A DNA stretch of 64,000 nt from Thermoanaerobaculia bacterium (GCA_035949675.1 DASZHY010000092.1:3851-67850), one strand, 5' to 3'. Positions 13,437-63,587 are shown, counted from the stretch's first letter. A program made the numbers and translations. The notes: generated by a model not told the origin, from the letters alone.

Positions 13437-13549
13437 CGGCCCGGCCGCCACCCGTACCACCCTCTCCTGCGCAGTGCAGCGGCGCCGAGGGAAAGGCGCG
13501 ATCGAGCTGAGCGGCCGCCGCAATGCCGCAACCGTGTTTCCTTCGTAAC

Positions 13550-13578
13550 TGAACCTGGCGCCTGTCCCGGTGGACTCA
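13550..13578 (+). promoter_or_regulatory. Putative ECF-sigma-type promoter TGAACC-N17-GACTCA upstream of cupredoxin paralog 1
   Basis: The identical -35/-10 hexamers and spacer length recur upstream of the paralog at 28155..28183. The RBS AAGGAG and ATG at 13609 follow about 30 nt downstream. Confidence 0.35.
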
Positions 13579-13608
13579 AGGGGTGACGTGCCCAAGGAGC
13601 CATCGATC

Positions 13609-15009
13609 ATGCACATAAACCGTGTTTCATCCCCGAGGCGGCTCGCCGCTTTCGGCATCGTTTTCGCGCTGGCGCTCGCTCTCGCGCCGGCATCCCATGC
13701 AGCGAACCACGACGTCAGTGCCACCGCATCGTTGACCTTCGAGCCGGCCAACCTCACGATCAAGGTCGGCGATTCGGTGACCTGGACCAACTCGAGCGGC
13801 GTGAATCACAACGTGGCCGCGAACGACGGCAGCTTCCGCTGCGCCAGCGGTTGCGACGGCGACGGCCACGGCGGCAACGGCAACCCGGCGGGCAGCTGGA
13901 CGTTCACGCGGACCTTCAACCAGCCCGGCACCATCAACTACCTGTGCGAGGTCCACGGCGGCCCTCCCATCTCCATGGTGGGCTCGATCGTGGTGCAGGG
14001 CAGCGCCGCTTCTCCGGGCAGCCTGGACTTCAGCACTGCCGCCGACAGCGTCGCCGAGAACGCCGGCACCGCTCATCTCACCGTCAACCGCAGAGGCGGC
14101 AGCTCGGGGGCGGTGAGCGTCCACTTCGCCACCAGCGACGGCACCGGCGTGGCCGGCAAGAACTACGTCGCGACCTCCGGCACGCTCAACTGGGCCGCCG
14201 GCGACACGGCGGCCAAGACAATCAACGTCGCGGTGCTCGACGACGGCGTTGCGGACGGCGGCCACACCGTCAACCTGACGCTCAGCGCGCCCCAGGGCGG
14301 GGCAAGCCTGGGAACGCCGTCCGCCATCGTGCTCACCATCACCAACACCGACGGCGGCACGGGCGGTGCGCCCGCCGCGCCCTCGAACCTGGCGGCGGCC
14401 AGCGCCGGCACCACCGCCATCAATCTCACCTGGAAGAGCAACTCCAGCAACGAGACCGGCTTCCGCGTGCAGAGCAAGGTGCTCGACGGCAGCCCGTTCC
14501 AGGACGTCCTGCCGCTCTCCCCGGCGGGCAGCACGGGCACCGCTGTAACCGGCTTGCAGCCGGCGACCGGCTACGGGTTCCGGGTGCGCGCGGAGAACGC
14601 GGCCGGCAACTCGGCCTACACCACCGAGGCCGACGCCGCCACCGACACGACGCCCGGCACCTGCGTCGCCGACGCCAACACCCTCTGCCTCGGCGGCCGT
14701 TTCAAGGTCAGCGTTGCCTGGGCGACCAGCAACATGAGCGGCGTGGGGACCACGGTGCCGCTGGCCGCCAACCCGGACTCGGGGCTGTTCTACTTCTTCG
14801 CGTCGAGCAACATCGAGATGCTGATCAAGGTGATCAACGGCTGCGGGCTCAGCAACACCTACTGGGTCTTCTTCGCCGCCACCACCAACGTGCAATTCAC
14901 GGTCACCGTGGTCGACGTCACGACCGGCAAGACCAAGGTGTACTTCAATCCGCTCAACCAGGCCGCGGTGCCGGTGCAGGACACCAACGCCTTCGCCACC
15001 TGCCCCTGA
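13609..15009 (+). CDS. Secreted multidomain protein: type-1 copper cupredoxin + 2 Calx-beta + FN3 + conserved C-terminal domain ending CP
   Basis: Signal peptide present. The cupredoxin region holds ligands His (NHNV), Cys/His (YLCEVHG) and Met (SMVG). Calx-beta motifs are VHFATSDGTGVAGKNY...NVAVLDDGVADG. The FN3 domain is INLTWKSN...YGFRVRAENAAGNS. The C-terminal domain of about 130 aa is shared with 28212..29957 and 61954..62883. Confidence 0.7.
   Translation: MHINRVSSPRRLAAFGIVFALALALAPASHAANHDVSATASLTFEPANLTIKVGDSVTWTNSSGVNHNVAANDGSFRCASGCDGDGHGGNGNPAGSWTFTRTFNQPGTINYLCEVHGGPPISMVGSIVVQGSAASPGSLDFSTAADSVAENAGTAHLTVNRRGGSSGAVSVHFATSDGTGVAGKNYVATSGTLNWAAGDTAAKTINVAVLDDGVADGGHTVNLTLSAPQGGASLGTPSAIVLTITNTDGGTGGAPAAPSNLAAASAGTTAINLTWKSNSSNETGFRVQSKVLDGSPFQDVLPLSPAGSTGTAVTGLQPATGYGFRVRAENAAGNSAYTTEADAATDTTPGTCVADANTLCLGGRFKVSVAWATSNMSGVGTTVPLAANPDSGLFYFFASSNIEMLIKVINGCGLSNTYWVFFAATTNVQFTVTVVDVTTGKTKVYFNPLNQAAVPVQDTNAFATCP
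14233..15009 (+). repeat. Copy 1 of a ~777-bp dispersed repeat (near-identical from about 14330 onward), matching 29181..29957
   Basis: Side-by-side reading of the two gene 3' halves shows only scattered substitutions across the FN3 and C-terminal-domain coding DNA. Identity stops right after the stop codons. Confidence 0.8.
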
Positions 15010-15074
15010 CGCGAGGCCGAGGCGCCGGCCCACCAAGCTCGAGTGGGCCGGCGCCTCTGGTAAGCTGCGCGCCC

Positions 15075-19095: not shown

Positions 19096-21294
19096 TCAGG
19101 GCGGCGGCACCAGCTCGAGCGACCAGACACCGGCCCCTTTGGTGCCGGCGTAGAGCCGAAACCGCAGGGGGTCGTAGACCAGCGAGGAAACGCCGGTCGG
19201 CAGCAGCACCGGCAAGCCGGTCCCCAGCACCCCCCAGGTGCCCGGCGTCGAGGTGATCCTGGCCCAGACCGGCGGGCCCGTGAGTCCCACGTTGGGCCCG
19301 TTGAATGTCACCGGCTGGTCGAGGCTCGCGATCAGAAAATAGGTGCTGGGACCGCCGACCAGCAGCAGGCCGGTGAACGCGCCGGCCGTGGGGAAGTCCT
19401 GCGAGGTCCAGGTGGCGCCGCCGTCGCCGCTCAGGTACACGGCCCCGGACCCTCCCACGTAGACCGTGCCGGCATTCACCGGATCGATCGCCACCGACTG
19501 AAAGCTCAGCTCGTTCTGCCCGCTCGCCGCCCAGGTGGTGCCACCGTCGAGGCTCTGGTAGATCCCGTTCGCGGGGATGACGCCAAATGGCGCCTGCCAG
19601 GTGGCGACCGCGTAGACCGTCGCCGGCTGGGACGGCGCGTAGGCGATCGCAGTGACGAAGTAGGCGGAGCCGCTGGGCGGCAGGACGGACTTGCTGTCCC
19701 AGGTGACGCCGGCGTCGCGGCTCTGATATACGGCGTTACCCGCCCCAACCAGGATGTGCATCGCGTCGAGAGGATCGACCGCCACGCTGGTGACGGGGTG
19801 TGGATCAAAGGTATTGCCGAAGGTCGGCAGCGGCGCCCGTTCGGTCCAGCTGTTGCCGGCATCGAGCGATACCGCAAGGAGGTTGAACGAGCTGACCGCA
19901 TAGAGCGCCGCGGGTCCGGGCGGCGGCGGGCCGGGCGGAAGGGTGCTCGGCGACCAAACGGCGAGCGCGGTCACGTTGGGGTCGGTCAAGCCGCTGTTGA
20001 TCTTCCGCCAGGCGGCGCCGCCGTTGCGCGAGCGATAGACGCCCAGGGCGGTGCCGGCGTAGAGCTTGACGTTGTTCGCTGGTCCGCCGCCGTAATCGAT
20101 GGCCATGGCCTGGACAGCGGTCGCAGATAGACCAGCGCTCGACGCAGCCCAGGCGGTCCCGAGGTCGGAGCTCGTCCAGACGCCGGCACCGGGAGCCTGC
20201 GAACCAACACGGGAGAGGCCGCTGCCGGCGTAGATCACCGGCGACGGCGTCGAAGCCAGGGCGAGAGCGCCCACGGCCACTGCGGCGGCGCCGGCCGGCG
20301 CCGGGATGGCCGTGGCGGCAAACGCAGCCAGCGGCGTCCAATGGGCGCCTGAGTCGTGACTCTGATAGATCCCCTCGTCGGTGCCGGCGAAAAGCAAGCG
20401 GCTGTGCGGTACGGCCAGCAGGCTGAACACGCCCTGCTTGCCGAACGGGCCGCTGAGCGCCTGCCAGGTGAGGCCGCCGTCGTTGGTGACCACGATCTGG
20501 CTGCCCGAACCCGAGCTGATCAAGGTCTTGGCGCACCCGGCATAGGCCCGCAGCGGCCGCACCGGATCCCACAACAGGGCCTGAGCGGCGCAGGCCGTCC
20601 CGAACACCTGCCGCCAGGTGGCGCCGCCATCGGCGCTGCGGTACAGGCCATAATCGCTGCCGGCAAGCAGCAGGCCGCGCCGCGGACCCGCCGCCAGGGT
20701 CTGCACCAGAGGGGGGCTAGAGGCGCCGGGCGGCGTCCCGAGACCGGCGCCGATCCTGGCCCAGGTTGCACCGCCATCGGCGCTCTTGTAGGCGCCGCTG
20801 GTCGAGCCGGCGGCGTAGACGAGGAGCGGCGAGAAGGGATCGAAGGCGAACTGCGTGGCCTCGACGAACTGCCGGCGCAGGGTGACCCGGTGCCAGGAAG
20901 CCGCATGATCGAGGCTGCGGAAGATGCCACTGACGGCGGCCGCGAGGAGCGTGCCCCGGGGGCTGACGGCGATCGTCGCCAGGCCGTTGGTGTCGAGCCC
21001 GGAGCTGGCCGGCGCCCAGGTGGCGCCGCCGTTGGTGCTCTTGAACACGCCCCCAAACTGCGTGCTCGCGTAGAGCGTGGAACGCGATCCCGGATCCGCC
21101 GCCAGCCCGGTGACCACGCCTCCGTCGGGTCCGGTCGGTGCCCACGCTCCCTGGCCCGCGGCGGCCAGCGGCGCCGCCAGCGCCCAGGCCACAGCCAGGA
21201 CCAGGCCCCCAAGACACCGGCCAAGACGCCGGCCGCCTGCTCGCCATGCCTCCATCGCTTGCCTCGTCTCTCCCCGCCGCCGGCGGAGCGGCAA
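19096..21294 (-). CDS. Secreted BNR/Asp-box repeat beta-propeller protein
   Basis: At least seven S-x-D-x-G-x-T-W repeats (TNGGATWAP, SADGGATW, TNDGGLTW, SHDSGAHW, SRDAGVTW, SLDGGTTW, SGDGGATW). It has an N-terminal signal peptide. The start is 21294 or 21258. Confidence 0.7.
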   Translation of the reverse strand: MPLRRRRGETRQAMEAWRAGGRRLGRCLGGLVLAVAWALAAPLAAAGQGAWAPTGPDGGVVTGLAADPGSRSTLYASTQFGGVFKSTNGGATWAPASSGLDTNGLATIAVSPRGTLLAAAVSGIFRSLDHAASWHRVTLRRQFVEATQFAFDPFSPLLVYAAGSTSGAYKSADGGATWARIGAGLGTPPGASSPPLVQTLAAGPRRGLLLAGSDYGLYRSADGGATWRQVFGTACAAQALLWDPVRPLRAYAGCAKTLISSGSGSQIVVTNDGGLTWQALSGPFGKQGVFSLLAVPHSRLLFAGTDEGIYQSHDSGAHWTPLAAFAATAIPAPAGAAAVAVGALALASTPSPVIYAGSGLSRVGSQAPGAGVWTSSDLGTAWAASSAGLSATAVQAMAIDYGGGPANNVKLYAGTALGVYRSRNGGAAWRKINSGLTDPNVTALAVWSPSTLPPGPPPPGPAALYAVSSFNLLAVSLDAGNSWTERAPLPTFGNTFDPHPVTSVAVDPLDAMHILVGAGNAVYQSRDAGVTWDSKSVLPPSGSAYFVTAIAYAPSQPATVYAVATWQAPFGVIPANGIYQSLDGGTTWAASGQNELSFQSVAIDPVNAGTVYVGGSGAVYLSGDGGATWTSQDFPTAGAFTGLLLVGGPSTYFLIASLDQPVTFNGPNVGLTGPPVWARITSTPGTWGVLGTGLPVLLPTGVSSLVYDPLRFRLYAGTKGAGVWSLELVPPP

Positions 21295-21430: not shown

Positions 21431-24400
21431 CTACTCGAAGTAGCCGCTGACGTCGACGATCACCTGCACGCTGGGCGACTGGCCGCCGACGGACGAGAAG
21501 ACCCGCAACGTGCCGTCGCCGGCGGCCGACAGCGCGCTCACCGTGTTGTTGGCGCGCGTCTGGCCGGCGTTGAAGCTGAGCGTGCTGGTCCCCGGCGGCG
21601 TCGTTCCGTCGGGGTGAAGAGTGAGGTGCCCGGCGCCCGTCGCCCCGGTGACGGTGACGTTGAGCGCCACGGCCTTGGCGGTGATCGGCACGTTGCAGCT
21701 GCGTGCGATCATGACCACGCGGTCCTCGGAACCGAAGGCGGGGCCCTGGTCCGCGTTGCGCGTGTCGAGGACCCGGCACGGCGGCACGGCGAAGAAGCAG
21801 AGCTTGCCACCGGTCAGCGCGCAGGGCGGCGGCGGGCAGATGCCCGGCGCCAGGGCGTGCGTCACCTGGAAATCGTCGACGTGCCAGCCGTCGACCCCCA
21901 CGTTGGCGTCGTTCTGGAAGCGGAAACGGAAGCGGCGGCTGAGACCCGCAAGGGCGCCGATGTTCAGCGTCACCTGGTCCATCTGGGGGTATGACGCATT
22001 GCTCCCCTGCCAGGCCGGCTCGCCCCCGACGGTGCTGTTGTAGCCGCCCGCCACGAAGGTCGCGCCGGCGGCGGTGATCTCCTGCCAGGTCGCGCCGCCG
22101 TCGGTCGACACCTCGAGCGAGCCGCCGTCGGCGCCGGTGGCCGGGGTCTCGGTGGCAAAGGCGTGCCAGAAGCTCAGCTGGCTGTTGCTCGAGATCCCCA
22201 TCACCGGCGAGATCAGCCGGTCGTCCTTGTTGCCGTTCTGGGACTCGCTCGAGTACCAGTCCGTGGTCGGACTGTGGGCGCTGGCGTCGGGGCTCCTGAG
22301 CTGCCAGTTGATCGAGCCGGTTCCGGGATTGACCGGGGTCTGTACCGTCCAGCCCGGCGCGCCCGACTCGAAGTTGTCGGAAAAGACGGAGTCGAGCAGG
22401 CACAGGATGTTGAAGCAGGCCTGCGCCGTGGAGCTCAGGGGCGTGATGCCGGCGGGCGGCGTGTCGGTGACGGTGTAGTCCACGCAGCACCGGCCCGTCA
22501 GGTCGTGGTTCGGCGTGAAGGACAGCTTGTTGCCGGCGATCGACACGGCGCCGCAACTGAGCGGGCCGACCCCGGTCAGCGTCAACGGATCGCCGTCGGG
22601 GTCGGAGTCGTTGGCCAGCACGTCCGCCGTGATCGAGGTGTTGCGGGCCAGGCTGAACGAGTCGGGCATCGCCACCGGCGGGTGGTTGACGTTGGGGATG
22701 ACGGTGATCGCGACGTGGGCCATGGCCGTGTTGCCGTGACCGTCGTCGTCCTGGTAGGTCAGCGCGTCGCTGCCGGTGAAATTGTGGGCCGGCGTGTAGA
22801 GGATCTGCTGATCGGCCGTCACCGACGCCGTGCCGTTGGCCGGCGCCGCGACGATGGACACGCTCAACGTGTCGCCGTCGGGATCGGAGTCGTTGGCGAG
22901 GACGTCGATCCTGAGCGATCCGTTCTCGCGCACCGTGGCCACGTCGTCGACCGCAACCGGCGGGCTGTTGCCGGCGCAGCTGCCGACGACCCCGTAACTG
23001 CCGAACGTGGTGGTGACGCTCAGGCTGCCGGTGGGCTGGGTGGTGTTGTCGATCGCGGCGTTCGAGCGGAAGGTCTGCGTGCCGCTGCCGTCGAAAGTGC
23101 GGGCGTAGATACCGCCCAGGACGTCGTGCAGCTGGGGATTGCCCACCGCGCTCTTCGGCACGTTGATCACGATGCTGCCGTCGGCGAGGTGGTCGCCGGT
23201 GGTGGTCGCGATCTGGTGCGGAATGGGGTTGGAAAGGACGAGGCCGATGACTCCGAGCTCTACCGTTCCGTACTCGAAGGTCACCACCGGCGGATTGCTG
23301 TTGTCGGTGCTCATGCCGGCGTAATAGACGCCATTGAAGATCACTGGGGCGGCCGGCGGACTGGGATAAGACCAGATGATGCGCCACTGCCGCGTCGGGG
23401 TGGTGGGGTGTGACATGTCGGCGTCGACCTTCATGGTGAAGACCAGATTGGAACCGTCGCCGGGTTCGGCCACCGAGACGGACAGGATGTCGAGATCGGC
23501 GTTGGCCGGCGCGCCCACCTGGCTGCCCGCGGGATCGGTGAGCAGCTGGACGCCGGGAGTGGTGCAGGGATCGAGGGTCAGATCGACCGGCTGGACCTTG
23601 CTGGCGTTGAGGCCGCAGGCCGCCGACTCGCCGGCGGCATTGACCGCGCTGACGCTGTAGAAGTAGGTGTCGGTCTGCGTCGCGGTTGCGTCGAGATAGC
23701 TGCGCGCCGCCCCCGGGAGCGTCGCGAGCTGGCTGTCGGCGCCGCCGGCGCCGGTGCGGCGGTAGACCCTGTAGGCGGTGATCGGAGCGCCGCCGGTCGA
23801 CGGCTGCACCCACTCGAGATGCACTCCCCCGGCGTCTCGCCGGGCCGTGGTCAGCGTGGCGGCGCCCGCCGCGACAGGCTCCGCCGGATCGTGGGCGGCA
23901 AAGAGCCGCTTGCCGCTCGTCTGGCGCAGCAGCGTGGCCTGAGCGCGGTAATCGTTGCCGAGCGCGCTCGCCGGCGCATCCTTGCACTGCCGCGAGGTGC
24001 AGCCGTCCGCGAACACCGCCACCACGCGGCCGAACTTGTCGACGTTGATGTCGTTGAAGTCGAGCAGGTTGCGGCAGACGTTGGCGCCGCCGCCGTTCCA
24101 GATGCAGGTGCGCTGCACCGCGTCGTCGGGGGTCGCGTCCACGACCGTCCAGTCGGTGCCCTGGTTGTAGGTATGGGCGATGTAAAAGTGCCAGACGCCG
24201 TTGAAGCTGCTGCTCTGGTAGGGGCCGGCGGTCGGAGTGCCCAGGAAGCCGAAGGCGGCGCGGTCGTCATCGCCCGCGACCACCTCGGCGAACTCGCAGT
24301 TCTTGATCCCGAAAGCCGTGCCGACGTCCGTGCTCGCGCTCCAGGTGATCGCCGGGGTCGGCAGGGCGGTGAGCTTGCCGACCGCGATCTTGGGAGATCC

Positions 24401-25300
24401 GCTGCCGTCGCAGTAGCCGAAGTAGATCGAGCCGCCGGCGCCGATCCAGACCGAAGGGTCGGACGTTCCCGTCGTGCTGTCGGGAATCTTGGCAAGGCTC
24501 CAGCTGGCGCCGTCGTCGGTCGAGAAAAACAACCCTTGCTTGCCGCCGCAGCTCGCGTTCGGCACGTAGGCGGAGCCGTCCACCGGCGAGACCTTGACGT
24601 GGCCATGCAGGCCGCCGCAGGCCGCGCCGGTGTCGATCGGGACCGCTGGGCCCCAGCTCGTGGCGCCGTCCGTGCTCAGGGCGCAGGCCGCGGCAGGCAG
24701 CTGCGAGCAGTAGTAAAAGGCGTTCGCGTACCCCGTCCCGACGAGCGGCGGCGCGAACGGACCGCCGCCCAGGGTCTCGTGATCGACGCCCGAATTGACC
24801 GCGCTGCCGCCGGCGGCCGTCCAGGTGTTGCCGTCGTCGTCGGTCGTCGAAGCCTCGTTGCGGCCGGTGAGCAGGAGCAGCATCGCCGCGATGGTGCGGT
24901 TGGTCTGATGATCGGTGAAGAGAATGGGATCGCTGTCCTGGTGCGAGGTGGGGGCCGACTTGTCCTCCCACGTCGTCGTGGAGTACGCCGGACACAGCGG
25001 CGCGCCCGTCGCCGCGTCGTCGAACGTGATGCGCAGGGTCTGAACGTCGGATTGGACCATGATCTTGCCGGTCGCCCAGTCGACGCCGACCGACGGCTCG
25101 CCGGCGCTGACTCCATACCCGATGTTGATCTTGCCCTGGTCGATCTGGGCCGGGGTCGGGGTGTAGCTCTGGTAGGAGGGCACGCCAGGGGCGGGCGTGC
25201 CGGCGGTGACGGCTCCCCAGGCCGGAGCGCCAAGCATCAACCCGAGGACCGGTAAGGCGGAGTACATCCAGGTCATCGCAGGACGGAAGCGCAGGCGCAT
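21431..25300 (-). CDS. Giant secreted adhesin-like protein (1289 aa): sialidase/BNR-like propeller + FN3 + two cadherin/Ig-like domains + MAM/LamG-like (choice-of-anchor J-like) + C-terminal beta domain
   Basis: Signal peptide present. The cadherin/Ig-like repeats read VAVDDVATVRENGSLRIDVLANDSDPDGDTLS and PVAMPDSFSLARNTSITADVLANDSDPDGDPLT. The MAM/LamG-like region reads DNFESGAPGWTVQT...SLEVSTDGGATWQEI...WHVDDFQV. Confidence 0.75.
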   Translation of the reverse strand: MRLRFRPAMTWMYSALPVLGLMLGAPAWGAVTAGTPAPGVPSYQSYTPTPAQIDQGKINIGYGVSAGEPSVGVDWATGKIMVQSDVQTLRITFDDAATGAPLCPAYSTTTWEDKSAPTSHQDSDPILFTDHQTNRTIAAMLLLLTGRNEASTTDDDGNTWTAAGGSAVNSGVDHETLGGGPFAPPLVGTGYANAFYYCSQLPAAACALSTDGATSWGPAVPIDTGAACGGLHGHVKVSPVDGSAYVPNASCGGKQGLFFSTDDGASWSLAKIPDSTTGTSDPSVWIGAGGSIYFGYCDGSGSPKIAVGKLTALPTPAITWSASTDVGTAFGIKNCEFAEVVAGDDDRAAFGFLGTPTAGPYQSSSFNGVWHFYIAHTYNQGTDWTVVDATPDDAVQRTCIWNGGGANVCRNLLDFNDINVDKFGRVVAVFADGCTSRQCKDAPASALGNDYRAQATLLRQTSGKRLFAAHDPAEPVAAGAATLTTARRDAGGVHLEWVQPSTGGAPITAYRVYRRTGAGGADSQLATLPGAARSYLDATATQTDTYFYSVSAVNAAGESAACGLNASKVQPVDLTLDPCTTPGVQLLTDPAGSQVGAPANADLDILSVSVAEPGDGSNLVFTMKVDADMSHPTTPTRQWRIIWSYPSPPAAPVIFNGVYYAGMSTDNSNPPVVTFEYGTVELGVIGLVLSNPIPHQIATTTGDHLADGSIVINVPKSAVGNPQLHDVLGGIYARTFDGSGTQTFRSNAAIDNTTQPTGSLSVTTTFGSYGVVGSCAGNSPPVAVDDVATVRENGSLRIDVLANDSDPDGDTLSVSIVAAPANGTASVTADQQILYTPAHNFTGSDALTYQDDDGHGNTAMAHVAITVIPNVNHPPVAMPDSFSLARNTSITADVLANDSDPDGDPLTLTGVGPLSCGAVSIAGNKLSFTPNHDLTGRCCVDYTVTDTPPAGITPLSSTAQACFNILCLLDSVFSDNFESGAPGWTVQTPVNPGTGSINWQLRSPDASAHSPTTDWYSSESQNGNKDDRLISPVMGISSNSQLSFWHAFATETPATGADGGSLEVSTDGGATWQEITAAGATFVAGGYNSTVGGEPAWQGSNASYPQMDQVTLNIGALAGLSRRFRFRFQNDANVGVDGWHVDDFQVTHALAPGICPPPPCALTGGKLCFFAVPPCRVLDTRNADQGPAFGSEDRVVMIARSCNVPITAKAVALNVTVTGATGAGHLTLHPDGTTPPGTSTLSFNAGQTRANNTVSALSAAGDGTLRVFSSVGGQSPSVQVIVDVSGYFE

Positions 25301-28059: not shown

Positions 28060-28154
28060 GTCCGTCTCCCTCCCTTCCAGCTCGACTGCAAGAGGCGCGC
28101 CCGCCGCTTGCGAGCAAGCTCGCAGGCAGGATGCATTAGCCCAACTTCCGCAAT

Positions 28155-28183
28155 TGAACCTGGAGCCTCGCCGCGGGGACTCA
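28155..28183 (+). promoter_or_regulatory. Putative ECF-sigma-type promoter TGAACC-N17-GACTCA upstream of cupredoxin paralog 2
   Basis: Same hexamers and spacing as 13550..13578. RBS AGGAGG and the ATG at 28212 follow. Confidence 0.35.
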
Positions 28184-28211
28184 TTGGATGACGTCCTCAG
28201 GAGGCATCGAC

Positions 28212-29957
28212 ATGTGTAATTACCGTGCTTCGTCCCCGGTGCGGCTTGCCGCTCTCGCCATCGTTCTCGCCGTCAGCGTGGTGCCGGTCTGCCAGGCGAC
28301 GACCCACAACGTGAGCGCCACCTCGTCTCTCTCCTTCGTACCGGCCAACATCACGATCAACGTCGGCGATTCGGTGACCTGGACCAATACCACCGGCGGC
28401 TACTACATGCACAACGTGGTCGCGGACGACGGCAGCTTCCGCTGCGCCAACGGCTGCGACGGCGACGGCCACGGCGGCAACGGCAACCCGGCGACCACCT
28501 GGACCTTCACGCTGACCTTCAACCAGGCCGGCACCGTCAATTACCACTGCGAGGTCCACGGCGGCCCCCCCTACTACATGATGGGCTCGATCACGGTGCA
28601 GGGCGCCTCGACCCCGGGGACGCTCGGCTTCACCACCGCCGCCTACAGTCAGGCCGAGACCGGCGGCCATGCCACCATCACCTTGCAGCGCACCGGCGGC
28701 AGCAGCGGCACCGTCGGCGTCGACTACGCGACCAGCAGCGGCACGGCGGTCGCCGGCACCAACTACACGCCGGCTTCCGGGACCCTCACCTGGGCCGCCG
28801 GGGACACTTCCCAGAAGAGCTTCAACGTGCCGGTGATCGACGACGGCGTCCAGGACGGGACCCACACCGTCAACCTGACGCTCAGCAATGCCACCGGCGG
28901 CGCCTCCGTGGGGCAGGCGTCGGCGGTCCTGTCGATCACCGACAACGACAAGCCCGCCGCCGCCGGCAGCCTGGCGTTCAGCGCCGCCGCCTACAGCGTT
29001 GCCGAGAACGCCGGCACCACCTCGATCACCGTCAATCGCAGCGGCGGCAGCTCGGGGGCGGTGAGCGCCCACTACGCCACCAGCAACGGCACCGGCATGG
29101 CCGGCAAGCATTACACCGCGACCTCCGGCACTCTCAACTGGGGCGCCGGCGACTCGGCGGCCAAGACGTTCAGCGTCGCCGTGCTCGACGACGGCGTCGC
29201 GGACGGCAACCATACGGCCAACCTGACGCTCAGTGCGCCCCAGGGCGGGGCCAGCCTGGGAACGCCGTCCACCGCCGTGCTCACCATCACCAACACCGAC
29301 GGCGGCACGGGCGGTGCGCCCGCCGCGCCCTCGAACCTGGCGGCGGCCAGCGCCGGCACCACCGCCATCAATCTCACCTGGAAGAGCAACTCCAACAACG
29401 AGACCGGCTTCCGCGTGCAGAGCAAGGCGCTCGACGGCAGCCCGTTCCAGGACGTCCTGCCGCTCTCCCCGGCGGGCAGCACGAGCAGCACCGTCACCGG
29501 CCTGTTGCCGGCGACCGGCTACGGGTTCCGGGTGCGCGCGGAGAACGCCGCTGGCGCCTCGGCCTACACCACCGAGGCCGACGCCGCCACCGACACGACG
29601 CCCGGCACCTGCGTCGCCGACGCCAACACCCTTTGCCTCGGCGGCCGTTTCAAGGTCAGCGTTGCCTGGGCGACCAGCAACATGAGCGGCGCGGGGACCA
29701 CGGTGCCGCTGGCCGCCAATCCGGACTCGGGGCTGTTCTACTTCTTCGCGTCGAGCAACATCGAGATGCTGATCAAGGTGATCAACGGCTGCGGGCTCAG
29801 CAACACCTACTGGGTCTTCTTCGCCGCCACCACCAACGTGCAGTTCACGGTCACCGTGGTCGACGTCACGACCGGCAAGACCAAGGTGTACTTCAATCCG
29901 CTCAACCAGGCCGCGGCGCCGGTGCAGGACACCAACGCCTTCGCCACCTGCCCCTGA
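28212..29957 (+). CDS. Secreted multidomain protein: cupredoxin + 3 Calx-beta + FN3 + conserved C-terminal domain (paralog of 13609..15009)
   Basis: Signal peptide present. The cupredoxin site is MHNV...YHCEVHGGPPYYMMG. Calx-beta repeats read VDYATSSGTAVAGTNY and AHYATSNGTGMAGKHY. The last 770 bp are near-identical to 14233..15009. Confidence 0.7.
   Translation: MCNYRASSPVRLAALAIVLAVSVVPVCQATTHNVSATSSLSFVPANITINVGDSVTWTNTTGGYYMHNVVADDGSFRCANGCDGDGHGGNGNPATTWTFTLTFNQAGTVNYHCEVHGGPPYYMMGSITVQGASTPGTLGFTTAAYSQAETGGHATITLQRTGGSSGTVGVDYATSSGTAVAGTNYTPASGTLTWAAGDTSQKSFNVPVIDDGVQDGTHTVNLTLSNATGGASVGQASAVLSITDNDKPAAAGSLAFSAAAYSVAENAGTTSITVNRSGGSSGAVSAHYATSNGTGMAGKHYTATSGTLNWGAGDSAAKTFSVAVLDDGVADGNHTANLTLSAPQGGASLGTPSTAVLTITNTDGGTGGAPAAPSNLAAASAGTTAINLTWKSNSNNETGFRVQSKALDGSPFQDVLPLSPAGSTSSTVTGLLPATGYGFRVRAENAAGASAYTTEADAATDTTPGTCVADANTLCLGGRFKVSVAWATSNMSGAGTTVPLAANPDSGLFYFFASSNIEMLIKVINGCGLSNTYWVFFAATTNVQFTVTVVDVTTGKTKVYFNPLNQAAAPVQDTNAFATCP
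29181..29957 (+). repeat. Copy 2 of the ~777-bp dispersed repeat (see 14233..15009)
   Basis: See copy 1. Confidence 0.8.
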
Positions 29958-30097
29958 GGCAGGACCAAGGCGCCGAACCGCCAAATCCTTCTCTCGCGAA
30001 CCGCGAGCCGCGACGCCGGACACCCGGCGCCGCGGCCGCGGCCGCTTACGTCGCCATCCACCGGTGGCGCTCCACTGAGCTGCAGGCCCGCGGCGTT

Positions 30098-31171
30098 TCA
30101 GGGGGACGGCGGGCTGACCGCCGGAGGCGCGCCGCCGGCCGGTGACGGCTGACAGCAGCCCTCGCCCTCCGGGGCGATGGGGCGGCCGTGGGGACAGACG
30201 GTCGGGTGGCCCAGGAAGGCGCAGACCTGGTCCTCGAAGCCGGCGGCGACCGGGGCAGCGCGGCCGCACTGGGGGGCGACGGCCCCGGGGGCAAGGGTCC
30301 TGGCCAGCAGGGCTTCGGCGAGGCGGACGCGGCGGACGGCGGCGGCGGCCTGGGCGCGCCCGCGGTCGGTGAACGCGATGCGGCCGTCGGCGAACGCCAG
30401 CAGACCTTGAGCGAGGAGATCGGCGATGCCGCGGGCGGTGACCGGCACCGGGCGGCCGTCTTCGGCGAGCGCGCGCCACAGATCCACCAGGACGGCTTGC
30501 AGCTCGGCGGCGCCGGGGTCCTCGAGGCGGGCGAGACGGCCGTGCTCGAGCCGGATCTCGCGGCCGGCGCGGGCGGCGATCGACGGGTCGTGGGTGACCA
30601 GGATCAGGGTATGGCCGCGGCGGTTGAGGTCGGCAAGCAGCGTCATCACCACCGCCTCGTTGACCGCGTCGAGATTGCCGGTGGGCTCGTCGGCGAGGAT
30701 GAGGGGAGGCTGGTTGATCAGCGCCCGCGCCAGGCAGACGCGCTGCTGCTCGCCGCCGGAGAGCTGGCTGGGCAGATGGTCGAGGCGCCCGCCGAGGCCC
30801 ACCCGGCGCAACGCCTCCTCGGCCTCGCCGCGGTCGGTCGTGCTGTGGACGTACTGGGCCAGCATCACGTTCTCGAGCGCGTTGAGGTAGGGGATGAGGT
30901 GGAACTGCTGGAACACCAGCCCGACGGTCTGCTGGCGGTAGCGGGCCAGGTCGCGGCTGGCGAGGCCGGTCAGGTCGAGGCCGCCGACCCGCACCCTGCC
31001 GGACGACGGGCGGTCGAGGCCGGCGAGGACGTTGAGCAGGGTGGTCTTGCCCGAGCCCGAGGGCCCGGTGACCGCCACCCATTCGCCTTCGGCGACGGCG
31101 AGCGACAGCTCGTCGAGCGCCAGCAGCGACCCGAAGCGGCGGCTCAAGCTCTCGATCTCGACCAGCGGCAT
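30098..31171 (-). CDS. ABC transporter ATP-binding protein (MacB/LolD-type) fused to a C-terminal DtxR/MntR-like HTH and metal-binding domain
   Basis: The N-terminus reads MPLVEIESLSRRFG...GPSGSGKTTLLNVLAGL...LSGGEQQRVCLARAL...ILADEPTGNLD. The C-terminal 130 aa resemble DtxR, with RRVRLAEALLARTL and ...FLGHPTVCPHGRPIAPEG matching RKHRLAERLL and ...NPTTSPFGNPIPG. Confidence 0.65.
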   Translation of the reverse strand: MPLVEIESLSRRFGSLLALDELSLAVAEGEWVAVTGPSGSGKTTLLNVLAGLDRPSSGRVRVGGLDLTGLASRDLARYRQQTVGLVFQQFHLIPYLNALENVMLAQYVHSTTDRGEAEEALRRVGLGGRLDHLPSQLSGGEQQRVCLARALINQPPLILADEPTGNLDAVNEAVVMTLLADLNRRGHTLILVTHDPSIAARAGREIRLEHGRLARLEDPGAAELQAVLVDLWRALAEDGRPVPVTARGIADLLAQGLLAFADGRIAFTDRGRAQAAAAVRRVRLAEALLARTLAPGAVAPQCGRAAPVAAGFEDQVCAFLGHPTVCPHGRPIAPEGEGCCQPSPAGGAPPAVSPPSP

Positions 31172-31182
31172 GGCTCGCTCCG

Positions 31183-61876: not shown

Positions 61877-61953
61877 CGCGGCGGTAACATCCCGCCCCTT
61901 GCAGCGCCTCATCCCAAGGAGGGCTGCACATCCGGTCGACAAGGAGGTCGCTC

Positions 61954-62883
61954 ATGGTCTTCGCCTTCAGCAGGTACAGGCGGCGCGGCAGGCCGCTGCT
62001 TCGAGGATTGCTGCTGTCTGGGGCGCTGCTGCTCGCGCCTGCCGCTGCCGCGCAGGCCACTGTGTCGGTGATCTACAACTGTCCGAGCTCCGGTAGCTCG
62101 GGCAACCACGACTCCGTGGCCAACGGGTTCTACGTACAGAACCTCAACGCCGTGAACCTGCACTCGGTCGTGATCGACTACACGACCGACACGGACGGCA
62201 CCTACACACTCCAGCTGACCGCCAGGGACGGCTCCTACGCCGGCCCGCAGATCGGTTCGACACAGACTCAGATGGTGAACCTGAGCAGCGGCGCGGACAC
62301 GCCGGTGACCTGGTCTTTCGGCGACGCCGCCTTCACTCCCGGGCACACCCTGGCGTTCACCCACAATTTCGGCGGGCCCGGCGGAGTGCAGTTCAACCTG
62401 CAGGGGACCCTGTGCCCCGGCGACGTCGAGACCGTCGGCACCACCTCCAACTCCAACGGCTTCAGCGTCGCGGTGGCAATCACCGACAACACCCAGAGCG
62501 CGAGCGGCTGCATGCCCGGCAGCCAGACCCTGTGTATCAGCGACCAGCCCGGCGATCACCGGTTTCAGATCACCAGCTCGTTCTCGACCACCCAGGGCGG
62601 CGGTCACTCCGGCAACGGCGGCGCCATCGACCTGACGCCGGTCGGCGTCACCGAGGGCGGCCTCTTCTGGTTCTTCGACTCGGCGAATCCCGAGATGCTG
62701 ATCAAAGTGATCAACGGCTGCGCGATCAACAACCACTTCTGGGTGTTCTACGCCGCGGTCACCAACGTCTCGTTCCAGGTCACGGTGAAAGACACCAAGA
62801 CCGGCCACACCGCGACCTACCACAATCCCGATCTGACCACCGCGGCTCCGATTCAGGACACCTCGGCCCTCACCTGCCCCTGA
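61954..62883 (+). CDS. Secreted protein carrying the same conserved C-terminal domain as the cupredoxin paralogs
   Basis: Signal peptide present. The C-terminus ...GLFWFFDSANPEMLIKVINGCAINNHFWVFYAAVTNVSFQVTVKDTKTGHTATYHNPDLTTAAPIQDTSALTCP* aligns residue-by-residue with the C-termini of 13609..15009 and 28212..29957. Confidence 0.6.
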   Translation: MVFAFSRYRRRGRPLLRGLLLSGALLLAPAAAAQATVSVIYNCPSSGSSGNHDSVANGFYVQNLNAVNLHSVVIDYTTDTDGTYTLQLTARDGSYAGPQIGSTQTQMVNLSSGADTPVTWSFGDAAFTPGHTLAFTHNFGGPGGVQFNLQGTLCPGDVETVGTTSNSNGFSVAVAITDNTQSASGCMPGSQTLCISDQPGDHRFQITSSFSTTQGGGHSGNGGAIDLTPVGVTEGGLFWFFDSANPEMLIKVINGCAINNHFWVFYAAVTNVSFQVTVKDTKTGHTATYHNPDLTTAAPIQDTSALTCP

Positions 62884-62973: not shown

Positions 62974-63210
62974 ATGGGAGTCTTCAACGTACACGATGCC
63001 AAGACCAACCTCTCCCGGCTGCTCGAGCGAGTCGCCCAGGGCGAAGAGGTCATCATCGCGAAGAGCGGACGGCCCGTGGCGAGGCTGGTCCGAGTTGCCG
63101 CCGAGCCTCGCAAACCTGGGCGCCTCAAGGGTCGCATCCGCGTCGCCCCGGACTTCGATGAGCCGTTGCCGGCGGAGATCCAGGCTGCCTTCCGCGGGGA
63201 AAGGGAGTGA
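62974..63210 (+). CDS. Type II antitoxin, Phd/YefM family
   Basis: MGVFNVHDAKTNLSRLLERVAQGEEVIIAKSGRPVARLV. Confidence 0.8.
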   Translation: MGVFNVHDAKTNLSRLLERVAQGEEVIIAKSGRPVARLVRVAAEPRKPGRLKGRIRVAPDFDEPLPAEIQAAFRGERE

Positions 63211-63587
63211 AGCTCCTGCTGGACAGCCACGCCTTTCTCTGGTGGCTCGCAGGGGATCGTAAGCTCGGTGCCGGAGCCCGGCAGGCGGTGGCTGACCCCG
63301 CCTCGATCGTCCATGTCAGCGCCGCGACGATCTGGGAGCTTGCGATCAAGGCCGCTCTCGGCAAATTGGATCTCGACGGCGCTGATCTGGTCGACGAGAT
63401 CGGGGAAAGCGACTTCGTCGAGCTCCCGATGACGGCGCGTCACGCGCTTGCCGCGGCCCAATTGCCTCGTCACCACGAAGACCCGTTCGACCGCATGCTG
63501 ATCGCCCAGGCTCAGCTCGAGGGCCTGACGCTGATCACCAAGGACAGGGCACTTGGTGCCTACGGGGTCCCCATCCTCCCAACCTGA
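63207..63587 (+). CDS. vapC: PIN-domain toxin VapC
   Basis: VKLLLDSHAFLWW...WELAIKAALGKLDL...DPFDRMLIAQAQLEGLTLITKD. The GTG start overlaps the antitoxin stop (GTGA). Confidence 0.85.
   Translation: MKLLLDSHAFLWWLAGDRKLGAGARQAVADPASIVHVSAATIWELAIKAALGKLDLDGADLVDEIGESDFVELPMTARHALAAAQLPRHHEDPFDRMLIAQAQLEGLTLITKDRALGAYGVPILPT

Follow-up and report, generated by a model that had tools for sequence, protein, structure and literature searches.

An unannotated domain family with a Cys-Pro end in secreted proteins of Thermoanaerobaculia and Holophagae, possibly a paired binding or retention module

Three proteins encoded within one 64,000-nucleotide stretch of DNA from a Thermoanaerobaculia bacterium (GCA_035949675.1, DASZHY010000092.1:3851-67850; the whole stretch, with 70% G+C, is hereafter called the window) end with the same domain and the same two residues, Cys-Pro. 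What is this domain, how far does it extend beyond the window, and what does it do for the proteins that carry it? A reading made from the sequence alone had described it as a conserved, apparently uncharacterized C-terminal domain of about 130 amino acids (aa), shared by three paralogs and reminiscent of a sorting or secretion tag. The domain is real and belongs to a large, unannotated family that makes up a major share of the secretome of an uncultured acidobacterial clade. For now the find has the rank of a domain of unknown function, and its Cys-Pro chain end stands out as a striking feature. The existence of the family, its boundaries, conservation, distribution and architectures are firm results, and from these we infer what it does: tentatively, it is read here as an extracytoplasmic module that would act in pairs to bind or retain its carriers at a shared ligand of the envelope or matrix.

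The three genes are read on the + strand, as indicated by a G+C content at third codon positions (GC3) of 0.90-0.94 and by Pfam matches in their upstream parts. Their features, in window coordinates, are as follows (ORF, open reading frame; CTD, C-terminal domain).

13609..15009, + strand: gene 1, secreted protein with cupredoxin, Calx-beta, fibronectin type III (FN3) and the C-terminal domain (ORF list, Pfam, GC3 0.92)
13609..13701, + strand: gene 1, predicted Sec signal peptide, MHINRVSSPRRLAAFGIVFALALALAPASHA/A (translation judged by eye)
13720..13998, + strand: gene 1, plastocyanin/azurin-like cupredoxin (PF00127, residues 51-143 of the 479-aa ORF)
14014..14346, + strand: gene 1, Calx-beta (PF03160, residues 149-259)
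14377..14625, + strand: gene 1, FN3 (PF00041, residues 270-352)
14641..15006, + strand: CTD1, domain copy 1, short-loop subfamily (alignments, tblastn, AlphaFold2)
28212..29957, + strand: gene 2, a recent duplicate of gene 1 carrying an additional Calx-beta (ORF list, Pfam, DNA identity)
29589..29954, + strand: CTD2, domain copy 2 (alignment and tblastn, 98% identical to CTD1)
61954..62883, + strand: gene 3, signal peptide followed by an unannotated beta-rich N-terminal region and the domain (ORF list)
62488/62509-62880, + strand: CTD3, domain copy 3, long-loop subfamily with 'QGGGHSGNG', 'NPDLTTA' and 'AL-TCP' (alignments, tblastn)

The three C-termini align over their full length with 59 invariant columns, and the shared motif up to the terminal CP-stop is as the earlier reading had written it; only the length required correction, to about 115-125 aa. 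CTD1, whose final residues C-P precede the stop codon at 15007-15009, is nearly identical to CTD2, and CTD3 shares about 45-49% identity with both over an alignment of about 120 aa. A tblastn search of the window in six frames with the domain returned exactly these three copies (CTD1 versus CTD3, E 1.5e-27; all others, E > 2). Genes 1 and 2 are not independent but mosaic paralogues: the DNA of their 3' 1,020 bp, which encodes Calx-beta, FN3 and CTD, is 93% identical (14017-15036 versus 28965-29984), whereas the 5' part of about 750 bp is only 77% identical (13544-14286 versus 28149-28886). This pattern suggests that the two loci, 15 kb apart, recently underwent gene conversion or a partial duplication. 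Hence the three copies are present as described, but with CTD1 and CTD2 as recent duplicates the window holds two independent domain lineages, not three. The family comprises two subfamilies, told apart by two loops that covary (residues 27-34 and 106-107), and both occur in the window, the short-loop form in CTD1 and CTD2 and the long-loop form in CTD3.

No family in the libraries searched accounts for the domain. Pfam-A (2025 copy) and NCBIfam 20.0 (June 2026) have no entry that covers the C-terminal part of the window proteins at E<=1, and among 40 diverse family members searched at E<=10 no Pfam or NCBIfam/TIGRFAM family recurred. DUF1935, MspA and PKD were considered as the identity of the family and rejected as weak, chance-level matches. 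In the literature, full-text searches brought up no account of the domain, and in the source annotations its members are named 'hypothetical protein' or after their passenger domains. The description as uncharacterized was correct, and the other outcome that the earlier reading had allowed for, a domain with no homologues beyond the window, did not occur either, as homologues are very abundant.

A word-indexed search gave 135 matches with a query from the window subfamily and 1,850 with a profile of the other subfamily. The exhaustive HMMER search, run against 1.84 billion cluster representatives at 50% identity, retrieved 10,456 proteins at E<=1e-3 and 5,562 at E<=1e-30. In GTDB species genomes at least 592 domain loci were confirmed; the locus analyses below use the best 80 of them, all from metagenome-assembled genomes (MAGs). 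The best loci that bear a taxon name all belong to Acidobacteriota except for one 'Deltaproteobacteria' bin, and the named acidobacterial loci are assigned to Thermoanaerobaculia (including Ca. Multivoraceae) or to Holophagales/Holophagae. Source names from the protein searches concur, and their few odd assignments sit on contigs shorter than 4 kb. The flanks of the 80 loci (1.29 Mb) contain 10 further domain-bearing ORFs, or about 8 per Mb, and the window has three domain genes in 64 kb; extrapolated from these densities, a genome would hold, roughly, tens of domain paralogues.

Conservation was assessed in 466 copies of the domain. R20, K63 and D92 are 100% conserved, E59, W75 and T82 99%, N57 and D114 98%, and Y101 and N103 97%. 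From the secondary-structure register, N57/E59, T82/N83, Y101/N103 and Q113/D114/T115 would lie at one end of consecutive antiparallel strands and form a polar patch. Four cysteines are conserved at 93-98%. Losses of C8 and C16 are paired (8 double versus 6 single), C68 and C121 are practically never lost, and the Cys pairs are the strongest couplings in the covariation analysis once indel-linked loop columns are set aside. Because of these joint losses and top couplings we infer the disulfides C8-C16 and C68-C121, the latter pinning the chain end to strand 5. The cysteines proposed earlier as a disulfide clamp would therefore stabilise the domain, but not through one end-to-end bond. As a general contact map the covariation was discarded, since indel- and subfamily-linked loop columns dominate it and leave the Cys pairs as its sole usable signal.

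Pro directly follows the last Cys in 239 of the 271 copies that end a chain (88%) versus 12 of 165 internal ones (7%), and the internal copies of tandem pairs are as well conserved as the terminal copies. Since internal copies keep the last Cys just as well, this residue is part of the fold, and selection for Pro is specific to the chain end. Lipidation of, or attachment through, the C-terminal Cys was rejected, this residue being equally conserved internally and the number of conserved cysteines being even (four). The 20 residues upstream of the domain form a flexible linker rich in Ala, Gly, Ser, Thr and Pro, in which no conserved motif was found, a cleavage motif included.

The AlphaFold2 model of a single domain, built on a 40-sequence alignment, is all-beta, with about 10 strands in mostly short hairpin connections and one short helix (predicted local distance difference test (pLDDT) 95, predicted template-modelling score (pTM) 0.88). 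With this model Foldseek retrieved nothing from the PDB at E<=0.001 (best TM-score 0.33), the low-scoring matches being scattered over barrels, galectins, Fabs and LolA; the best TM-score against BFVD was 0.37, and the domain profile reached no better than E 0.12 against PDB sequences. The model thus describes a confidently predicted fold that is possibly new to science. A tandem pair (P0163, 283 aa) was modelled with pTM 0.81 and a linker of about 45 residues at pLDDT ~50-68, and it has no neighbour in the PDB by Foldseek (TM-score <=0.21). As each domain makes up only about 42% of this chain, a pTM of 0.81 implies a confident mutual placement by AlphaFold2, which appears to pack the two domains together as a pseudo-dimer.

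The architectures are those of a mobile module. In the 93 ORFs from the genome loci, a sample unbiased by copy number or architecture, most N-termini resemble signal peptides, the domain occupies the extreme C-terminus in about 90%, and 76 end exactly in 'CP-stop'; the usual order is signal peptide, variable passenger and domain with C-P-stop. Tandem pairs occur in many fragments and full proteins, and among the best 150 exhaustive matches 146 have two copies, one has three and three have four. A C-terminal copy is missing in 28 of these 150, most of which have a tandem pair right behind the signal peptide and a further 250-1,200 aa beyond it. Four orthologous proteins of about 830 aa (P0131, P0150, P0169 and P0183) consist of a signal peptide, a tandem pair and a region of about 540 aa with a serine-hydrolase-like motif, 'VVLVAHSQGN', in which 'AHSQGN' is invariant. 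Their C-terminal beta region resembles PPC/DUF2135 weakly; for the 540-aa region no Pfam or PDB sequence match was obtained, and it may represent an unannotated enzyme family. Finally, at least 10 small proteins are stand-alone forms, composed of signal peptide and domain only.

The passengers are correspondingly diverse: any one family is common to at most six of the 58 multi-copy proteins. They include FN3, PKD, Big_9, Ig-like, cadherin and Calx-beta domains, Lactonase, PD40, WD40 and SGL propellers, FG-GAP, LVIVD, PPC, BACON, G8/CEMIP beta-helix, Vgb-lyase, lyase-like beta-helices, Sortilin, a ricin lectin, and the peptidases S8 and M23. The commonest are FN3, Ig-like, cadherin, Calx-beta, propellers, peptidases and cupredoxins, and not glycoside hydrolases. 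A lone cupredoxin recurs as the passenger in eight proteins (P0008, P0017, P0029, P0032, P0033, P0040, P0044 and P0064).

The window genes fit this scheme, and their products bear predicted Sec signals and the N-terminal modules read earlier from the sequence. Copper-bind (PF00127) is matched in genes 1 and 2 at E 1.8e-10 and 2.6e-08, exceeding the gathering score, and the copper ligands His...Cys-x2-His...Met can be read in the translation as 'NHNV...YLCEVHGGPPISM'. Pfam finds one Calx-beta in gene 1 and two in gene 2 (65 and 127 bits, cutoff 27; gene 1, E 7.7e-18), and fn3 in both (43 and 46.5 bits, cutoff 25; gene 1, E 5.3e-11). Gene 3, with a product of 309 aa, has no significant match in Pfam or NCBIfam, and the fusion of its N-terminal region to the domain recurs in fragments from other metagenomes (P0005, P0062). 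The 479-aa ORF of gene 1 opens with GTG at 13570, and ATG 13609 is its likely start; that of gene 2 (589 aa) opens with ATG at 28188, with ATG 28212 as an alternative. Export by the twin-arginine (Tat) route found no support in the three translations, as a twin Arg is present in gene 1 only and the remaining motif is poor.

These features are best accommodated by a module that would work in pairs to bind or retain its carriers at one envelope or matrix ligand common to them, a reading to which we give a probability of about 0.42. It draws on the modular use at either terminus, the tandem pairs, the stand-alone copies, the polar conservation, the lack of a cleavage motif and the predicted pairing. 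The domain would be an autonomous, non-catalytic, all-beta unit of about 120 aa with two disulfides that, after export via Sec, would fold and become oxidised in the periplasm. It would work as a pair, either in tandem in cis or, in single-copy proteins, as a dimer in trans. The polar cluster of N57, E59, T82, N83, Y101, N103, Q113, D114 and T115 would bind one shared ligand, with R20, K63 and D92 placed elsewhere in the domain alongside it. This ligand would most probably be a glycan or other polymer of the cell envelope or matrix of Thermoanaerobaculia/Holophagae, and its binding would retain redox proteins, adhesin-like proteins and hydrolases at the cell surface or in the matrix. The C-terminal Cys would serve as a structural half-cystine that holds the chain end to strand 5, and the final Pro would cap the chain end, for instance against carboxypeptidases.

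Several points weigh against this reading. The main problem is that the ligand, the receptor and the localisation of the domain proteins are deduced only, and all sequences come from uncultured MAGs. The clustering of the polar residues follows from secondary-structure register and not from coordinates, and the pairing of domains is an indirect argument from pTM alone, made without predicted aligned error or coordinates. The position at the extreme C-terminus in about 90% of the genome-locus ORFs fits a sorting signal as well. Moreover, glycoside hydrolases are not prominent among the passengers, which argues against a classical substrate-targeting carbohydrate-binding module (CBM).

The alternative that survives best, although we consider it unlikely, is a signal role, in which the folded domain at the C-terminus would be recognised by a secretion or sorting pathway of Thermoanaerobaculia/Holophagae that is yet to be described. 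Its nearest analogies would be the C-terminal domain of type IX secretion system (T9SS) substrates and the C-terminal barrel of Slam/type XI secretion system cargo. After folding and oxidation in the periplasm, the conserved surface and the free Cys-Pro would be read by an outer-membrane translocon, and the domain possibly removed or used for attachment. Such a signal would explain the predominance of C-terminal positions and exact CP-stop ends (about 90% and 76 of 93), the chain-end-specific Pro (88% versus 7%), the Sec signal peptides on the carriers, a substrate set put at tens per genome whose passengers are unrelated, and the near restriction of named sources to one phylum-level clade. 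It does not readily explain the 28 of 150 best matches without a C-terminal copy, mostly N-terminal tandem pairs, nor internal tandem copies that are equally conserved, nor signal peptide-domain proteins that carry no cargo. A conserved cleavage motif is absent, there is no sequence or Foldseek likeness to the C-terminal domains of T9SS substrates, and sorting domains are usually far less conserved in sequence than the new domain. The C-terminal position and CP end are thereby weakened as marks of a sorting tag: the Pro is indeed specific to the chain end, but the Cys is structural. The fuller version, in which the domain is the cargo signal or attachment handle of an undescribed secretion or surface-display system, recognised folded and disulfide-bonded with a free Cys-Pro end, and is in addition a new fold, we regard as less likely still.

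The gene neighbourhoods likewise count against a sorting signal, insofar as no machinery gene recurs in the 1.29 Mb of flanks, although the substrates of T9SS, too, lie apart from their machinery genes. In the sequence covered, 64 kb of the window's own genome and 20-kb flanks of related loci, no family resembling T9SS machinery (SprA, PorV, PorU etc.) recurs, and no gene-linked partner or machinery gene common to the whole domain family was found in these flanks. An apparent '43-locus family' in the clustering of flank ORFs was rejected, as it consists of antisense ORFs of the domain gene itself; such ORFs mimic a conserved family because the sense DNA is conserved, a high-GC artefact that misleads neighbourhood analyses. 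With this artefact removed, what is left in the flank clusters is Ser/Thr kinases and ABC ATPases, both abundant paralogue families, and synteny confined to a single orthologous group. Long antisense ORFs also lie over the domain genes of the window (13627-15036, 28197-31082 and 61909-62823, all on the - strand) and are the usual artefacts of high-GC DNA.

A role mainly in dimerisation or oligomerisation and stabilisation, with no external ligand, is improbable. It would agree with the tandem-pair model, in which a disordered linker joins domains at pTM 0.81, with a copy number of essentially one or two, and with the very high stability suggested by two disulfides and a core rich in aromatic residues (GLFWFF, YWVFFAA). 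It leaves unexplained, however, the secreted stand-alone copies, the roughly ten invariant polar or charged residues and the use of the same dimeriser by tens of unrelated secreted proteins per genome, among which promiscuous hetero-dimers would be expected; the inter-domain packing itself is argued from pTM only. More improbable again is a CBM or lectin that would guide secreted enzymes to some polymer in the environment instead of the cell's own surface. The CBM-like modular architecture, the partners (BACON, PKD, G8/CEMIP beta-helix, ricin-type lectin and lyase-like domains) and the conserved Trp, Tyr and acidic or amide residues speak for it. Against it, glycoside hydrolases are not the commonest passengers, the small blue-copper proteins that have the domain as their sole fusion partner show no obvious need for an environmental polysaccharide, and Foldseek shows no resemblance to a CBM or lectin (galectins, TM-score about 0.2).

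In the window the domain genes adjoin unrelated housekeeping genes (DapF, TyrRS and ApbE; DUF4410, ArsR and an ABC ATPase; diacylglycerol kinase), and elsewhere stand-alone domain genes (P0072, P0056) are monocistronic with unrelated neighbours. The orthologous group with conserved synteny is that of cupredoxin, Calx-beta, FN3 and CTD: at eight loci (L003, L006, L012, L013, L014, L016, L019 and L022) such genes, in other Thermoanaerobaculia MAGs, lie about 300 bp from a gene for a DUF5777 outer-membrane beta-barrel (Pfam E 1.4e-25; e.g. L006:10675-11625), and a group of orthologous loci that overlaps with these eight has genes for an ECF sigma factor, a PLD-like enzyme and an S8 peptidase in the vicinity. 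This cupredoxin-type locus could be a surface redox or copper module. None of the DUF5777/ECF/PLD/S8 synteny was seen beside the two cupredoxin copies of the window.

Some further genes of the window were recorded in passing. A secreted Big_9/cadherin-like/FN3 protein of 1,289 aa (21431-25300, - strand) ends in about 110 aa ('...PPCRVLDTRNADQGP...VIVDVSGYFE') that have no Pfam match and constitute a different unannotated C-terminal module. A secreted beta-propeller protein of the BNR/Sortilin-Vps10 type (732 aa; 19096-21294, - strand) lacks the domain; a BNR/Sortilin protein is also encoded near a stand-alone domain gene at locus L084, a resemblance that is probably coincidental. At 30098-31180 (- strand) an ABC-transporter ATPase is fused to the C-terminal metal-binding/dimerisation domain of iron-dependent repressors (PF00005 and PF02742), an unusual combination. 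Directly 3' of gene 3, a small ORF (63207-63587, + strand; MKLLLDSHAFLWWLAGD...) resembles, by eye, a PIN-domain VapC toxin.

Thermoanaerobaculia and Holophagae are abundant, almost wholly uncultured Acidobacteriota of soils, sediments and sponges. By estimate, each genome has tens of secreted proteins marked by this one unannotated module, and the protein clusters that contain it number over 10,000 in all. Identification of its ligand, or of the machinery that reads it, would at once define the surface or exo-proteome of this clade and explain how hydrolases and redox proteins, among them the cupredoxin fusions, are retained at the surface. Pfam and InterPro would gain a large new family, possibly with a new fold, and if the domain were an export signal after all, it would point to a new secretion pathway.

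Among known systems, T9SS CTDs (type A, TIGR04183/Por_Secre_tail; type B, CHU_C/TIGR04131) come to mind first, being small all-beta C-terminal domains on many unrelated Sec-exported proteins, with tens of copies per genome in one bacterial clade. Neither Por_Secre_tail/TIGR04183 nor CHU_C/TIGR04131 was matched by the three window proteins (E<=1) or the 40 members (E<=10), and the predicted fold is not the Ig-like seven-strand beta-sandwich of those CTDs, to which Foldseek found no similarity. The new domain is larger (about 120 aa, about 10 strands), has two disulfides, belongs to Acidobacteriota and is much more conserved in sequence; T9SS CTDs are strictly C-terminal, whereas it also occurs N-terminally, in tandem and alone. 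PEP-CTERM/exosortase, LPXTG, GlyGly-CTERM and MYXO-CTERM signals share with it the placement at the C-terminus of paralogous secreted proteins, and short C-terminal sorting systems of the PEP-CTERM type occur in Acidobacteria. These signals combine a short motif, a transmembrane helix and a basic (Arg-rich) tail, whereas the end of the new domain is globular: the window proteins finish in ...QDTNAFATCP or ...QDTSALTCP, with no hydrophobic helix and no match of the TIGR02595 type. The sequence-only reading had set the domain apart from both T9SS CTDs and PEP-CTERM, and rightly so.

Two further likenesses are looser. TIGR03437 ('Soli_cterm') is an acidobacterial, paralogously expanded C-terminal domain of unknown function on secreted Ig-like proteins of Solibacter; it is a different family from a different class, and neither the three window proteins nor the 40 members matched it in NCBIfam. 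The C-terminal beta-barrel of Slam/type XI secretion system cargo is comparable by analogy only, as a folded beta-rich export determinant on diverse cargo; it is proteobacterial, and no similarity to the new domain was detected. In behaviour the closest counterparts are SLH, CWB2, LysM, dockerin and CBMs, which are likewise non-catalytic, single or tandem, found at either terminus of diverse secreted proteins and also as stand-alone copies. They have no sequence or detectable structural similarity to the new domain, which, unlike them, stays essentially at one or two copies instead of three or more and has an exact Cys-Pro-stop end. The resemblance to T9SS CTDs in position and abundance is superficial, and the domain would work most like these promiscuous accessory or anchoring modules.

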